IMG/VR virus record: IMGVR_UViG_3300020048_000044
Coordinates: 32,001 to 96,000 of that record
Source of the DNA: a virus
Strand: one strand, 5' to 3'
Length of the DNA: 64,000 nt
Below are positions 10,052-44,398 of the stretch, in pieces. The notes beneath the pieces were generated by a model. That model saw nothing but the letters and a program-made list of their open reading frames with translations, had not been told where the DNA came from and made no database searches. Both the position numbers and the translations under genes were made by a program. The stretch's first letter is position 1. Each line of letters begins with the position of its first letter.

Positions 10052-10098
10052 ATTAAAATAAATTTGGAATTATCAATTTTTTGTTATACCTTTGTCTT

Positions 10099-11070
10099 AT
10101 GAATAAACAAGAACAAATATTAGCCAAAAAGCTTAAGCCAATCGAGATTGGTGATTTCGTTAAAGTAGAAATACCTTATACAACATACGAAACTGTTACT
10201 ACTGGCAAAGGCAAAAATAAACTAGTAACTCAAGTTCCTAAACCTAGCGTTTTTAGTGGTGGTTGCTATGTTCGTGATATCATTAATAGTGAAGAAGGGT
10301 TAATTTATCTTGTTGATACACAATCTATTAGAATACCTAATGAACTTTCATTAAAAAGAACATATGATAAACATGTTTCTTTATGTGAAGTAAAGGCTGA
10401 GTTTGTATCTCCGACTTATTTGGAATGCGGTGAAAATCCTTTCAAGAAAGAAAAATTTCGTGTTAGCTTTTATAATCAAGACATATCTTGTTTATTAGGA
10501 AAAGCTTGTTACGCTAAGCGTGATGAAAACTACATGGTTCCAAAATACAATGTTCACAATGGTCTTCCCGAAGCTGATTTAATGGGTAAAACCTATGATG
10601 GTGTTAACTTCAATCCTTATGTTACTGATGCCAATGGTGAAAAACAGTATTACCAACGTGATTTGGTATGGACACTTGAACAAAAGCGATTATTGATTGA
10701 TAGCATTTATAATGGTATTGAGATTGGTAAGTTCTTATTCAGATACAAGTCTTGGGAAGACATGGTAGAAGGAATGAGAGAGCAAGGTCATGGTTATTCA
10801 TGGGATTGTGTTGATGGCAAGCAACGTTTCTTTGCTATTTTAGAATTTGTCCAAGGCAAGTATAATGATTCTCATGGAAACAATTGGGAAGATTTATCGG
10901 CAAATGCTCAAAGACACTTTTTAGATTATAGTAATCTATCTTATGGTGAAATGGGTGAAAATGCTAAGGATTCAGATGTTGTGGAAACCTTTCTAACACT
11001 TAACTTCACTGGCACCCCAATGAGCAAAGAACACATCGAATTCGTTCAATCATTTAAAATGCAAAAATAA
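10099..11070 (+). CDS. DUF262 (ParB-like/GmrS) domain protein
   Basis: YQRDLVW..EQK..LIDSI....IG; VDGKQR. Confidence 0.8.
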   Translation: MNKQEQILAKKLKPIEIGDFVKVEIPYTTYETVTTGKGKNKLVTQVPKPSVFSGGCYVRDIINSEEGLIYLVDTQSIRIPNELSLKRTYDKHVSLCEVKAEFVSPTYLECGENPFKKEKFRVSFYNQDISCLLGKACYAKRDENYMVPKYNVHNGLPEADLMGKTYDGVNFNPYVTDANGEKQYYQRDLVWTLEQKRLLIDSIYNGIEIGKFLFRYKSWEDMVEGMREQGHGYSWDCVDGKQRFFAILEFVQGKYNDSHGNNWEDLSANAQRHFLDYSNLSYGEMGENAKDSDVVETFLTLNFTGTPMSKEHIEFVQSFKMQK

Positions 11071-11153
11071 TTGAAAATAAATTTGGAATTGTAGTTTTTT
11101 TATATTACCTTTGTCTTATCTAATTAACTAATTAATAATTTAAATTATAAAAC

Positions 11154-12215
11154 ATGGAATTCAAAACTAAAATTAAGAATTTAGGTGAACGTGTATTAAC
11201 CTTAAAAGACCAAGTACAAACTGAAGAAGCAACAAAAAATGCTTTTATAATGCCGTTCATTCAAGCATTAGGTTACGATGTTTTTAATCCAACCGAAGTT
11301 ATCCCCGAATTCACTGCCGACTTAGGTATCAAAAAAGGTGAAAAAATTGATTATTCCATTTTCAGAAATGGTGACCAAGTAATGTTGATTGAATGCAAAT
11401 CTTGCAATGAAAATCTAAACGTTCATGAAGGTCAATTGATGCGATATTTCCACGTATCGAAAGGTAGAATTGGCTTACTGACCAATGGTATCGTTTATCG
11501 TTTTTATTCTGACCTTGTTGATGCCAACAAAATGGATGAAAAACCATTCCTAGAGTTTAACATCACCGAAATTTCGGACAATCAAATTGATGAATTGTAT
11601 AAATTCCACAATTCAGTATTTGATATCGAAACAATACTTCGTAATGCCAGTGATTTAAAAATCATACATGAATTGAACTTATTGGTTAAAGCTGAGTTCA
11701 CAACACCTAGTGCTGAGTTTGTTAAGTATTTTGCTAAACAAATCTATACAAGCAATGTAACACCGAAAATCATCGACCAATTCACTAGTCTAGTTACTAG
11801 AGCAATTAAAAATCATACCAATGAAATCATTTCAATGAAATTGAAAAATGCTTTAAATGATGTTAGTATAGTTGAAAGTGTTATCGATGTTGATGTACCA
11901 ACCTCAGAGATTGATGCCGAAAATAAAATTGAAACTACCGTTGAAGAATTGGAGGCTTTCATGATTATCAAATCAATTCTAAGACAAAAGATTGATATCA
12001 AAAGACTTAGCTATCGTGATGCACAGAGTTACTTTGCGATTATTCTTGACGATAACAACAGAAAAACAGTCGCTAGGTTGTATTTCAATGGCAAAAAGAA
12101 ATATATTGCGTTTTTAGATGAATCTAAAAAAGAGCAAAAGATTGAAATTCAAAGTCTTGATGATATTTTCACTCACTCTGATTTATTTTTATCAAATGCT
12201 GAAAAAATAAATTAA
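11154..12215 (+). CDS. HsdR N-terminal (type I REase-like PD-(D/E)xK) domain protein
   Basis: TEEATKNAFIMPFIQALGYDVFNP.EV.PE...KKGEKIDY...IECK. Confidence 0.85.
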   Translation: MEFKTKIKNLGERVLTLKDQVQTEEATKNAFIMPFIQALGYDVFNPTEVIPEFTADLGIKKGEKIDYSIFRNGDQVMLIECKSCNENLNVHEGQLMRYFHVSKGRIGLLTNGIVYRFYSDLVDANKMDEKPFLEFNITEISDNQIDELYKFHNSVFDIETILRNASDLKIIHELNLLVKAEFTTPSAEFVKYFAKQIYTSNVTPKIIDQFTSLVTRAIKNHTNEIISMKLKNALNDVSIVESVIDVDVPTSEIDAENKIETTVEELEAFMIIKSILRQKIDIKRLSYRDAQSYFAIILDDNNRKTVARLYFNGKKKYIAFLDESKKEQKIEIQSLDDIFTHSDLFLSNAEKIN

Positions 12216-12269
12216 AAATAATTGAAAATAAATTTGGTAATGTCAAAAATAATCATTACCTTTGTAATA

Positions 12270-12695
12270 TCAAAAACATAGTATCAAAGCTTAAAGCATA
12301 TGTAAGGTTGAAGTCCTTACTTGATACTTAGTCCTAATGGGTTGCAAACCATGGGACGAGCCGTTGCAACGGTTAACTTGCTTGGACAAACGTTAAGTCG
12401 CCCATGTAGATTGGGAGGTGTGGAATCGGTAGCCACAGCAAGTACAAAGATAATGGTTTATAACGTATGCTGCCTTCGGGAGTATATTTTGGGTGTTAAT
12501 TCCCATTCACTTAATCTTAGTCTTATTGGTTCGAACCAATAAGACGAACATTTGCAAATGACCCGAAAGGGTAGCGGTATTAGTGTAATTGGAAGCACAT
12601 AGGTGTAGGTTTGTAAAGATGGTTCAAGCCCATCGTGTCTGTGGCGGTGACAACAATAATTCCCCCTAAAGTAAGGTTCGAGTCCTTGTACTGCA
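12270..12695 (+). ncRNA. large structured non-coding RNA candidate
   Basis: Own promoter (12257); GC-richer; GNRA/UUCG hairpins, four T-loop-like hairpins, multibranch stem ACTTGCT/AGCAAGT. Confidence 0.7.
12574..12695 (+). tRNA. tRNA-like element with ~61 nt in place of the anticodon loop
   Basis: acceptor GCGGTAT/GTACTGC, D-arm GTGT-AATTGGAA-GCAC, T-arm AAGG-TTCGAGT-CCTT. Confidence 0.6.
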
Positions 12696-12777
12696 CAAAT
12701 TAAAATAAATTTGGAATTGTAAAATATTGTTAGTACCTTTGTCTTATCGAATTATTAATAAACTAAAATAATTAATT

Positions 12778-13047
12778 ATGAAAGTTGTTAAAAAATTAAA
12801 TGCTACAATATCTGCAAAAGAACTTACATCAGATGTGCTTGAAAGACTAGATGGTATGGAATGTATGTCAAACAATGTGATAAACAATACAAACGACCAC
12901 GATATTAAATCTTTTGTCATTTACAGAATTAAAAGAATGTTAAATGACAAAGAGGATGATACAAACGAAACAACAAAAAATAGAATCGCTGAATTATATG
13001 AAGCAATTAAAGATTGTGAAATATTGACAATTCATTACGATTTATAA
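12778..13047 (+). CDS. hypothetical protein
   Basis: ORF after promoter. Confidence 0.75.
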   Translation: MKVVKKLNATISAKELTSDVLERLDGMECMSNNVINNTNDHDIKSFVIYRIKRMLNDKEDDTNETTKNRIAELYEAIKDCEILTIHYDL

Positions 13048-13049
13048 AA

Positions 13050-13292
13050 CATAAGGATAGAGGGTAATGCTGGCTATTAGGTTCATCTTGTCGGATGATA
13101 AAATATCTCGCCATCGGTTATCAAGTTCTCCCTCTACTCCTATGACATAATTAGAACTTGGTAGCTTATATGGGGGCTAGCACTGGATTACCCCTTGGCG
13201 ATTTAAAATGACTGACGCTTCGGAAATGACGAAGAGCAATTACAAACGGGTAGAGGGGGCAACTGATTTTTGGATTTTTCAGTTGTCCCTAA
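13050..13292 (+). ncRNA. structured intergenic RNA candidate
   Basis: ORF-free, GC-rich, several competing helices, 11-bp closing hairpin. Confidence 0.5.
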
Positions 13293-13321
13293 AACTCTTT
13301 AAAAACTAAAATTTTAACTAA

Positions 13322-20503: not shown

Positions 20504-21122
20504 AATAGGCACCAATTACCATTTGGCTAACCTTGAAAGTATTAAAGAAGGTGACTTAATTCTTGTAGTAAGTAAAACTCATGGTAATGAACTTATACGT
20601 GCCAATGTGGATAATTCACAACCAACAGTATGTTATAAGGTATTAGCTACTACATGTGGTAGCATTGATAGTGAATTGCCATTATTGGACTTGGTTGAAA
20701 TCAATAAGCTATTGGGTGTGGTTGTCTTAGACAATCTAGCAATGGAATATGCCGATGAACAACATGCAAAGTTCGGTAAGATAGACCATCATGCTAGTAT
20801 GTGCAATTTTAAAGCTGGTTATAAGAAATGTGAACAACTTTCTAATAAATCATTTACCCTTGAAGATTTGAAAAGAGGTGTTGAATTTGGAATGTGGTTC
20901 TATAAAACCTATAGAGGGATTCCCGATACAGAATCAATTAATGATTTAGTTAACGGATTACTTAAGACTAAAACTGAATGGAATGCTGAGGTTCAGACAT
21001 ATAAAAGAGCAGTATTCAGCGGTGGATTGGTTGGTAGTCAAACTAAACAAGGTATTCAGATACATGAATCAATGGAATTAGATATTGATAATGGTTATGT
21101 TAAGATATTAAACTTATACTAA
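20487..21122 (+). CDS. hypothetical protein
   Basis: ORF track. Confidence 0.7.
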   Translation: MMKLFKIGTNYHLANLESIKEGDLILVVSKTHGNELIRANVDNSQPTVCYKVLATTCGSIDSELPLLDLVEINKLLGVVVLDNLAMEYADEQHAKFGKIDHHASMCNFKAGYKKCEQLSNKSFTLEDLKRGVEFGMWFYKTYRGIPDTESINDLVNGLLKTKTEWNAEVQTYKRAVFSGGLVGSQTKQGIQIHESMELDIDNGYVKILNLY

Positions 21123-21325
21123 AACATAAAATAAATTTGCTTTTCTGATTTTTTTATCGTACCTTTGCTTTATGAAATCAATTATTACAATATACCATTA
21201 CATAGTAACCATCATTTTAGTGCTATATTCAAAGAAGAAATCCTTCATATATTACACTAAGCATATTGGGGGTTATGAATTTGAACAAAAAGAAATCGAT
21301 GAATTTTTTAAATCTTTAAAATAAC

Positions 21326-21721
21326 ATGAAAATAACAAACTTAATACGTGTAATAATCTTTTCAATACTAGGGCTATACGCTAGTTATTGTTCATATCTA
21401 TTTTTAGCTACACCATTGCACCCAACATATCTTGATTGCGGTGTGGTTAAATCTAAGTCAAACGATGAAGTAGTTATCAAATATGGTACTAGTACCGAAT
21501 TGTATCTTAATGTCCAATTTGAAAAGGCTGGCTTCAAATCAGTAAAAGTCTCTGAAACAACTTATTTTGGAAATAAGGTAGGTGAAAAGGTTTGTTTCGA
21601 TTTAGATATTGAAGTCCCACTTTGGGTTGTTATACATCAAATTATTGGTGTATTAATTTTATTCTGTTTAAGTGTTGTTGGTTTTGTATTAATATGTGTT
21701 TTTTTATTTAATTGGGATTAA
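21326..21721 (+). CDS. membrane protein
   Basis: N- and C-terminal TM segments. Confidence 0.7.
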   Translation: MKITNLIRVIIFSILGLYASYCSYLFLATPLHPTYLDCGVVKSKSNDEVVIKYGTSTELYLNVQFEKAGFKSVKVSETTYFGNKVGEKVCFDLDIEVPLWVVIHQIIGVLILFCLSVVGFVLICVFLFNWD

Positions 21722-24388: not shown

Positions 24389-24700
24389 ATGGAAAAAGAA
24401 ATTAAATGGGATGAAATACCAGTAGGTACATTATTTAGAGCCTATATACGTGGTAAAAAAGTTAGTGGTAAGATACAAAAAGAAGATGATATAATTTTTT
24501 TGTGTCAAGATGAAGAACATGGCTTAGAATGTAACGATAAATTAGGTTTTCAATACTCATATACAATTAATGATGGGTCAACCGATTATATCCAAAAAAA
24601 TCATGTCGGAGCCTTACAATTGATACCCGATTTTCCATCGTGGATATCTTCAACACCTTCAACCATTAAAAATAATCGTTATCTTTTAATTAAAAAATAA
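24389..24700 (+). CDS. hypothetical protein with IKNNRYLLIKK tail
   Basis: ORF track. Confidence 0.7.
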   Translation: MEKEIKWDEIPVGTLFRAYIRGKKVSGKIQKEDDIIFLCQDEEHGLECNDKLGFQYSYTINDGSTDYIQKNHVGALQLIPDFPSWISSTPSTIKNNRYLLIKK

Positions 24701-24704
24701 ACCA

Positions 24705-25202
24705 ATGAAAGAACAAATCATAGAACTTATTAACAAATGTATCTCTAATAAAGATTACTTGCTAAACCCTATCAAAACTGCTGGTTCTTATTCAACTGGT
24801 GTTATGTATGAATCTAATAAAGTACAAGATAGATGGCAATATGAAAACAAATATCCTCGTTTAAATGAACAGATTACTTCATTTAAAGGTAGACATAAGT
24901 TATTATTCGTTTTCACTGATTCACCATCAATCAACATCTATTCGAGGTCTTCTGATGAAGTAATTGGTGAAATGATTGTCTATACCAAAGAATCATTCCT
25001 AGGATTTTCATATCCAAAAAAACATATAGTTAAAACTTGTAGTCGTGAATATACATATATCTTGTCATACGGTGAACTTAAATTTGAACTGCCCGAATAT
25101 CAAGTTAATGATATCGTTGCCGACTATCAAAGAAACTTAGAAGGATTCAGACAAGAAAAATATACTGAACAAATTAAACAACGTATCGAAAAATATTCCT
25201 AA
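24705..25202 (+). CDS. hypothetical protein, tandem paralog A
   Basis: KCISNKD...RIEKYS. Confidence 0.75.
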   Translation: MKEQIIELINKCISNKDYLLNPIKTAGSYSTGVMYESNKVQDRWQYENKYPRLNEQITSFKGRHKLLFVFTDSPSINIYSRSSDEVIGEMIVYTKESFLGFSYPKKHIVKTCSREYTYILSYGELKFELPEYQVNDIVADYQRNLEGFRQEKYTEQIKQRIEKYS

Positions 25203-44105: not shown

Positions 44106-44166
44106 AAATAATTGAAAATAAATTTGGTAGTGTCATTTATTATTACTACCTTTGTATTGTTAAAAT

Positions 44167-44271
44167 AATTAACCCAAAGTAACGGATACCAAACCGCCAT
44201 TCGCCACTCGTTGCACGTATGCAAAACTCGGCACTCAAGGCATTATAAATGGAACGTGAAATGGGTTAATT
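44167..44271 (+). ncRNA. stem-enclosed small RNA candidate
   Basis: AATTAACCCA/TGGGTTAATT closing stem just after promoter 44147; C-rich interior. Confidence 0.4.
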
Positions 44272-44278
44272 TTAAAGA

Positions 44279-44352
44279 AGCTTATTAGTTCAATTGGTAG
44301 AACGCTAGAGCCGAAACTCTGGATGTTACGGGTTCGAATCCCGTATAAGTTT
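44279..44352 (+). tRNA. tRNA with non-canonical 8-nt anticodon loop (GCCGAAAC); identity uncertain
   Basis: AGCTTAT/ATAAGTT acceptor, GTTC-AATTGGTA-GAAC D-arm, ACGGG-TTCGAAT-CCCGT T-arm. Confidence 0.8.
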
Positions 44353-44398
44353 CAACAAATGTTTTTTCATTGCATTTGTTATTCTGTATTTTAATGTT

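Follow-up and report, generated by a model that had tools for sequence, protein, structure and literature searches.

The window, by which we mean the whole stretch of 64,000 nucleotides that was analysed, corresponds to positions 32001-96000 of the 121.7-kb IMG/VR record IMGVR_UViG_3300020048_000044. CheckV places the completeness of the record at 34%, which implies a genome of roughly 350 kb, about two thirds of it outside the record. Terminase, portal and major head genes are encoded. The terminase is 77-83% identical to those of many uncultured giant-phage contigs and only about 30% identical to those of T4-like phages of Flavobacterium, Microcystis and Synechococcus; by its sequence, the source appears to be a giant phage that is distantly T4-like. 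The window has a GC content of 30%. Stop-codon recoding was considered as the cause of its many short open reading frames and small genes, and was rejected.

The locus described here occupies positions 12271-12696 of the window, where the GC content rises to 0.42, compared with 0.30 in the window and 0.17-0.34 in the flanks. Its longest open reading frame would encode 73 amino acids from a TTG start. The coding reading of this frame was rejected, and no other frame is credible. The features of the locus are as follows.

12233-12264, plus strand: promoter of the RNA locus, with the -33 element TTTG at 12233-12236, a 20-nt spacer and the -7 box TACCTTTG at 12257-12264
12271-12699, plus strand: predicted primary transcript, free of open reading frames, 42% GC
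12280-12328, plus strand: module A, a mini tRNA-like Y with an 8-bp acceptor-like stem, a 3-bp hairpin and a 6-bp T-arm with the loop UUGAAGU
12280-12287 and 12321-12328, plus strand: the AGTATCAA/TTGATACT stem, enclosing GTAAGG-TTGAAGT-CCTTAC at 12302-12320
12331-12357 and 12361-12372, plus strand: hairpins H1 and H2, with GUUGCAA in both
12376-12448, plus strand: module C, a 69-nt cloverleaf (12376-12444) with trailer; the minimum free energy (MFE) fold is exactly this cloverleaf
12376-12382 and 12437-12443, plus strand: the ACTTGCT/AGCAAGT stem, closing three hairpins
12452-12553, plus strand: module D, a four-way junction whose closing helix AAUGGUU/GAACAUU forms six of seven pairs around hairpins H3, H4 (12490-12505) and H5
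12466-12486, plus strand: C(UUCG)G hairpin H3, within module D
12520-12545, plus strand: perfect 26-nt palindrome H5 with the centre GGUUCGAACC, within module D
12561-12572, plus strand: hairpin H6, ACCC-GAAA-GGGU, from the sequence and RNAfold
12574-12699, plus strand: module B, a 122-nt tRNA frame (to 12695) with the trailer CAAA, from ARAGORN with introns
12607-12656, plus strand: insert of module B, with a stalk UUGU/ACAA and hairpins at 12618-12634 and 12636-12652 (UGUC-UGUGGCGGU-GACA)
12618-12634, plus strand: GATGG-TTCAAGC-CCATC hairpin inside the module B insert
12671-12687, plus strand: T-arm GTAAGG-TTCGAGT-CCTT of module B
12710-12741, plus strand: promoter of the next gene (89-aa open reading frame, 12778-13047), of the same consensus, with a TACCTTTG copy at 12734

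All of the motifs listed in the initial annotation can be read from the sequence where it had placed them. Its description of a T-loop-rich non-coding locus transcribed from the plus strand under its own promoter is borne out by the lack of a credible reading frame and by the full consensus promoter. These 430 nt contain three T-arm hairpins with a GG...CC closure; elsewhere in the 121.7-kb record there are just five, all inside tRNA genes. Together with the ARAGORN call, the GC content and the promoter copies described below, this exceeds what is expected by chance. Promoters had also been proposed on both sides of the locus, and full consensus copies are present, with -7 boxes at 12257 and 12734.

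The -7 box TACCTTTG is found 30 times in the window against 2.7 expected, an 11-fold over-representation. The two copies that bracket the locus have the full extended consensus of TTTG, 20 nt and TACCTTTG. About 20 plus-strand copies, each ahead of genes, share the extended form AAATAAATTTGGwATT...N...TACCTTTG. The layout of TTTG, 20 nt and TAnnTTTG (-33/-7) is that of the Bacteroidota housekeeping promoter, which suggests a Bacteroidota host and early transcription by the host polymerase. The RNA is predicted to start at about 12270-12273. No promoter or terminator was found inside the locus, and no intrinsic terminator was found on the plus strand after it.

An extended promoter of the form AAATAAATTTGGwATTsTCA...TACCTTTG precedes most small genes in the left 21 kb of the window, with examples at 150, 1738, 4161, 5245, 5645, 6985, 7829, 9449, 10087, 11106, 14363 and 16484. 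Such a set resembles a regulon of early genes under a Bacteroidota-type sigma factor. A tRNA gene at 44279 in the window is preceded by the same promoter type as the RNA locus.

The surroundings of the locus are a hypervariable accessory region, as the flanking small genes have no relatives: none were found for the neighbouring 89-aa and 289-aa open reading frames. The only neighbour common to related phages is an AAA ATPase 4.5 kb downstream, and synteny is absent. Upstream of the locus, at 10081-12215, two genes carry GmrSD_N (DUF262) and HSDR_N/PD-(D/E)XK nuclease domains. The second of them (HSDR_N/PD-(D/E)XK) has homologues of 55-62% identity in hundreds of unrelated viral contigs. Just 3' of the 89-aa frame, at 13050-13300, lies another GC-enriched stretch (0.42-0.43) that is free of open reading frames and has strong predicted hairpins; ARAGORN found nothing tRNA-like in it.

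The locus can be modelled as four tRNA-shaped modules, in the order A, C, D and B, together with three extra hairpins, all of them locally closed. The model contains 112 base pairs, five of which are G.U pairs possible on the plus strand only, and its stems are intact except for two mismatches. Its energy of -99 kcal/mol is well above that of the global MFE fold, -118 kcal/mol. The thermodynamic z-score lies between -3 and -3.7 for 12220-12399 and 12460-12639, and is -2.0 for the whole stretch. Taken alone, modules C and B are thermodynamically unexceptional, with z = -0.5 and -0.4, respectively. No long-range helix stands out in the locus.

Module A has no anticodon arm. Its MFE fold equals the Y-shaped fold, with z = -2.8. 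Module C is closed by a 7-bp acceptor stem, ACUUGCU/AGCAAGU, has arms of 3, 4 and 4 bp, and has connectors of 2, 1, 4 and 0 nt, which are the lengths found in tRNA. Its loops are not tRNA-like: the D-loop-like sequence AAUCGGUAG sits on the third arm and the middle loop is UGUAGAU. The middle arm has a 4-bp stem and a G at position 33, and thus does not carry a canonical anticodon loop. The cloverleaf ends in A444 (position 12444), which is followed by the trailer CAAA. Module D is the least tRNA-like of the four. Its closing helix and three hairpins, including the 4-bp hairpin H4, are given by RNAfold of 12445-12574. The Rfam tRNA model (RF00005) matched none of modules A, C and D.

Module B keeps the frame of a tRNA. 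With introns allowed and at the default threshold, ARAGORN called 12574-12696 a tRNA, and made no such call in five block-shuffled copies of the record (5 x 121 kb). The acceptor stem GCGGUAU/GUACUGC has 7 bp and contains G3.U70, with A73 as the discriminator. Its D arm reads GUGU-AAUUGGAA-GCAC, and AAGG-UUCGAGU-CCUU forms the T arm. The nucleotides U8, A14, G18-G19, A21 and A26 and the pair A15:U48 are all retained. Compared with a canonical tRNA of the class II or Leu type, module B is alike in its 7-bp acceptor, its 4-bp D arm with GG, its 5-nt variable loop, its T-loop UUCGAGU and its A73, and its 3' trailer is that of the clade. It differs in its 4-bp T stem, in the branched insert that replaces the 7-nt anticodon loop, and in its score, as RF00005 gave only a partial match at 12581-12634 with 14.8 bits against a gathering score of 29.

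The insert is 50 nt long (about 50-57 nt) and is held by the anticodon stem AGGUG/CCCCU. Its loop UUCAAGC, of which one sequence is available, is compatible with the T-loop consensus and with a Leu(CAA)-type anticodon loop alike. If it is an anticodon loop, decoding would be prevented by the distance of the modelled arm from the elbow, which is about nine base pairs too great. A canonical tRNA has a 7-nt loop with U33 and a purine at position 37, on a stem of 5 bp that lies at the usual distance from the elbow; neither module B nor module C has such a loop. What module B has is the make-up of an oversized or "intron"-bearing phage tRNA-like gene, in which the acceptor, D and T frame is intact and the anticodon region is enlarged by a long insert.

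The 3' ends of the modules were compared with 34 tRNA genes from the source record and its 233-kb relative G004. In all 34 a C follows immediately 3' of the discriminator, and in 18 the sequence is CAA, mostly CAAA. In place of an encoded CCA, the tRNA genes of this clade (source record and G004) thus have a specific 3' trailer, N73-CAAA. The same ending, A followed by CAAA, is seen in modules B and C, and CAAA has a window-wide frequency of 0.009 per nt; the trailer and cloverleaf patterns were noticed in retrospect, and their weight is to be set accordingly. Module D has the motif shifted one nucleotide downstream, and it is absent from module A. At position -1, modules B and C have A, whereas most of the clade tRNA genes have T. 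The trailer ties modules B and C to the tRNA genes of the clade and suggests that they share their 3' processing.

Aberrant tRNA-shaped genes are a feature of the clade and extend beyond this locus. At record positions 20869-21590 there is a cluster of one normal tRNA-Asn and three oversized tRNA genes of 98, 124 and 102 nt. The latter score 34-40 bits, above the Rfam tRNA threshold, and have Leu-type D arms and an expanded or replaced anticodon region. The tRNA at 44279 in the window (44147-44353 with its promoter) scores 52.6 bits and has a 124-nt GC-rich leader; its anticodon loop has 6 nt, and ARAGORN labels it "tRNA-???" with a two-base anticodon. The large tRNA arrays of G004 include canonical members. 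They also contain a unit of 119 nt in which a 6-bp anticodon-like stem encloses a 58-nt insert and whose 5' acceptor strand shares GCGGUA with module B, and a 94-nt unit with two T arms, in which a T-arm-like hairpin replaces the D arm.

Two further observations concern genes of this kind. The oversized-tRNA cluster sits 3 kb upstream of the gene for the phage SmpB. Metagenome contigs of an unrelated phage-like lineage (33-37% GC) carry, between genes, a tRNA-shaped RNA of about 115 nt with a second T-arm-like hairpin inside; among four variants there is one compensatory change, UCAC/GUGA against UCGC/GCGA.

The initial annotation had suggested that the RNA might be GOLLD, ROOL or a Y-like RNA, and had proposed a covariance-model search for GOLLD, ROOL, YrlA and tmRNA. 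This search was run, and no family matched. At the gathering scores, Rfam gave no match in the locus when the whole window was searched. At E<=10, GOLLD (RF01998), ROOL (RF03087), YrlA, tmRNA and the permuted tmRNAs were all unmatched in 12100-12900, where the partial tRNA match in module B was the sole related hit. There is also no TROVE/Ro gene in the 121.7-kb record, which holds about one third of the genome, and an identity with any of these RNAs is not borne out.

A homologue of the locus was found in none of the collections searched, and near-identical records possibly lie outside the searched set. Searches by blastn of 50,697 phage records with 12200-12780 and with module B gave no homologue, nor did nhmmer searches of 80 loci that have homologues of the upstream 353-aa gene and are not syntenic with this one. 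The same result was obtained for 20 terminase-related giant-phage records, both by BLAST and with a covariance model of 12276-12446 (R1). IMG/VR was scanned with patterns of the duplicated T-arm, of the module C acceptor with its trailer, and of a D-loop and T-loop spaced by 70-100 nt, and only ordinary tRNAs or chance matches in coding sequence were returned. A D-loop/T-loop pattern in metagenome contigs and a two-T-arm pattern in 185,579 species genomes likewise gave no homologue.

The best-supported reading, which seems to us somewhat probable, is that the locus encodes a tRNA-operon-like precursor which yields non-decoding tRNA mimics, and from its anatomy we infer how such products might be processed, kept stable and used. 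In favour of this reading are the consensus promoter, the ARAGORN call, the tRNA bases retained in module B, the cloverleaf of module C, the trailer, the intact stems, the other aberrant tRNA genes of the record and of G004, and the Lak megaphage precedent. Host RNA polymerase would start at about 12271, and the transcript would fold locally into modules A, C, D and B and the three hairpins. RNase P would then cut just 5' of every acceptor-like stem, and trimming of the 3' ends and addition of CCA would take place at the N73-CAAA trailer found also in the tRNA genes of this phage; no CCA enzyme gene is present in the 121.7-kb record, about two thirds of the genome being outside it. The expected products are stable RNAs of roughly 49, 69, 100 and 122 nt. 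They would be non-decoding because no module has a canonical 7-nt anticodon loop. Module B could still be handled by proteins that do not depend on the anticodon, such as the enzymes of tRNA processing, the CCA enzyme and, less certainly, AlaRS or LeuRS, because its full elbow and its acceptor with G3.U70 and A73 are kept. As mimics, the products would most likely tie up host tRNA-binding factors, or redirect them, in the infected cell. Against a processed array stand the orphan status of the locus, the lack of an exact trailer in modules A and D, and the lack of a thermodynamic signal in modules B and C. The energy gap to the global MFE fold, the failure of modules A, C and D to match the tRNA model, the A at position -1 and the retrospective recognition of the patterns also count against it.

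The locus might instead be the decaying remnant of a tRNA gene array, a set of transcribed pseudo-tRNAs without function, which we regard as unlikely while giving it appreciable weight. A straightforward match to a decayed tRNA cluster was the outcome that the initial annotation had set against its own proposal. The locus comes close to it, being clearly tRNA-derived by the ARAGORN call and the trailer, and large arrays of canonical tRNA genes exist in relatives. Its anticodon arms have been disrupted or replaced, the Rfam tRNA model does not recognise three of the modules, and the absence of a homologue in the 20 related records or elsewhere is what would be expected of a lineage-specific leftover. 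Decay, however, should affect stems and loops alike, and here the stems are intact bar two mismatches, including acceptor stems of 7-8 bp and a palindrome of 11-13 bp. The GC content of 0.42 in a 0.30 genome is at the level of this phage's tRNA genes, and the nucleotides of module B that make tertiary contacts are kept, so a plain case of decay does not fit. A full consensus promoter has also been kept, and the five G.U pairs of the model exist on the plus strand only. That the RNA acts as one large structured unit of about 430 nt, with the T-loops serving as tertiary-contact modules, appears improbable. Such a unit would be in keeping with the single promoter and the absence of internal promoters and terminators, with the many hairpins and several T-loop-like motifs, and with the z-score of -2.0 over the whole region. 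However, the sequence resolves well into modules that are each closed locally, two of them ending in tRNA-gene trailers, no long-range helix is outstanding, GOLLD, ROOL and all other Rfam families are unmatched, and the covariance model of the 5' half found no homologue. The proposal of one ornate RNA of about 420 nt, perhaps of a new class, stands as far as it concerns a T-loop-rich non-coding RNA. A single unit is less likely than a tRNA-derived array because two modules carry the clade trailer and one is an ARAGORN tRNA with an insert.

Two further readings would give the locus a part in translation. Module B, and perhaps other modules, could be genuine tRNA genes interrupted by short introns, whose removal by splicing would produce tRNAs able to decode. 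ARAGORN indeed models a 50-nt intron in the anticodon loop, and tRNAs with introns have been reported in Lak megaphages (PMC6784885). The insert of 50 nt, however, is far below the size of a self-splicing group I intron, and no splicing endonuclease, RtcB or Rnl-type ligase is encoded in the 121-kb record, which covers about one third of the genome. The spliced product would have the loop UUAAUUC, hence the anticodon AAU with U37, on an Ala-type G3.U70 acceptor, an implausible decoder, and we consider this reading very unlikely. Self-splicing group I introns are far longer than 50 nt.

The chance that the phage SmpB has its partner in this locus, as a tmRNA-like RNA in rearranged form, seems slighter still. 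Module B would then be the alanine-accepting tRNA-like domain, and the tag frame would be GCA AAU GAC CCG AAA GGG UAG at 12554-12574. SmpB is indeed encoded in the record (179.6 bits, record position 24608-25036), as it is in the relatives G004 and G005, and ARAGORN at its default found no tmRNA in the 121-kb record. The locus resembles tmRNA (RF00023) in its G3.U70/A73 acceptor, in its size of close to 400 nt and in the presence of SmpB in the phage. The sequence UUGCAAAUGAC at 12551-12561 is similar to a tmRNA resume region, and at a 70% threshold ARAGORN reports a "permuted tmRNA" at the locus. Nevertheless, the Rfam tmRNA and permuted models remained unmatched at E<=10 or E<=1, and a search of the whole record with RF00023 matched only the T-loop of a tRNA. 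With the putative tag placed before the acceptor strand, on its 5' side, the RNA has a topology that would probably be unable to thread into the ribosome. The acceptor strands of module B enclose 107 nt, that is, about 100 nt without a plausible tag frame or pseudoknots, which is not the architecture of a tmRNA. The tRNA-like domain of tmRNA lacks a normal D stem and anticodon stem, whereas both are normal in module B.

The relative G004 argues in the same direction, as its SmpB is paired with an ordinary one-piece tmRNA, so that possession of SmpB does not single out the locus. This tmRNA is divergent, with a score of 44.4 bits just under the Rfam threshold of 47, and was missed by ARAGORN. 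The similarity of the locus to it is within the range of shuffled sequences. As its neighbourhood has no counterpart in the source contig, the phage's own tmRNA is probably in the missing two thirds of the genome. The tmRNA identity was rejected on these covariance-model, topology and relative-genome grounds. A two-piece pairing of the 5' 300 nt with the module B insert was also rejected, the duplex energy being no better than with shuffled inserts.

Returning to the mimics that a tRNA-operon-like precursor would yield, a stronger version is that they are processed and stable and that at least one of them, module B with its G3.U70, A73 and Leu-type elbow, is CCA-tailed and aminoacylated though non-decoding, for use as a decoy or effector. 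We think this improbable. If it were true, charged or chargeable tRNA look-alikes would serve as decoys or effectors against a host tRNA-directed system; the candidate targets would be an anticodon nuclease, a synthetase or, through the phage's own SmpB, a pathway of ribosome rescue. The suggestion of the initial annotation, that multiple T-loops could act as decoys for tRNA-targeting defences, is likewise a hypothesis.

Stable RNAs that resemble tRNA have a long history in phages. The species 1 and 2 RNAs of T4 (rnaC and rnaD) and the tRNA-like stable RNAs of T5 are encoded in phage tRNA clusters, and we know of no function for them; they may be regarded as functional analogues of the RNAs proposed here. 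They are like the present locus in being small and non-coding, in their association with tRNA genes and in their tRNA-like ends, and the source terminase is distantly T4-like. Compared by description, the T4 RNAs are single species of 120-140 nt, in contrast to the multi-module array found here. YrlA and the bacterial Y RNAs are non-decoding, are bound by Ro, and mimic the tRNA elbow with look-alikes of the T-arm and D-arm. The locus would share with them the non-decoding character and the elbow mimicry, but it has no Rfam match, the record has no TROVE/Ro gene, and it ends in an acceptor stem rather than a Ro-binding stem.

The closest published case is that of the "enigmatic introns" in tRNAs of the Lak megaphages of Prevotella (Bacteroidota), one of which is itself tRNA-like (Devoto et al. 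2019, PMC6784885). In both instances the phages have Bacteroidota hosts, the host type here being suggested by the promoter, and the genes are oversized by an insert in the anticodon region; the tRNA-like insert of the Lak phages may be compared with that of module B, which carries a look-alike of a T-arm or anticodon arm (PMC6784885). The Lak cases are single tRNAs with assignable anticodons, found among ordinary tRNA sets and conserved across cohorts (PMC6784885). The locus is set apart from them, as far as the descriptions go, by its four-module array, by three modules that the tRNA covariance model does not recognise and by the absence of any homologue found. A survey published in 2023 lists tRNA-like candidates in viruses, which are uncharacterised (PMC10690425). 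The locus is a real and unusual non-coding one, a variant of the poorly understood phage genes that look like tRNAs, and is neither a GOLLD/ROOL-type RNA nor a new class of giant RNA.

Phage tRNA genes are usually seen as aids to codon usage or as substitutes for tRNAs that host defences cleave. Several tRNA-shaped genes of this phage are non-decoding, four of them in this locus behind one early-type promoter. This points to a second use of the tRNA scaffold: RNAs that engage tRNA-binding proteins could be built on it as a frame that is both stable and processable. At present the locus is an anatomical description to which a function is attached by inference. Phage RNAs that look like tRNAs have been noted since T4 and the Lak phages and, to our knowledge, have never been explained. 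If the products of this locus are processed and a host factor is bound, they would provide a concrete handle on this class of RNA.
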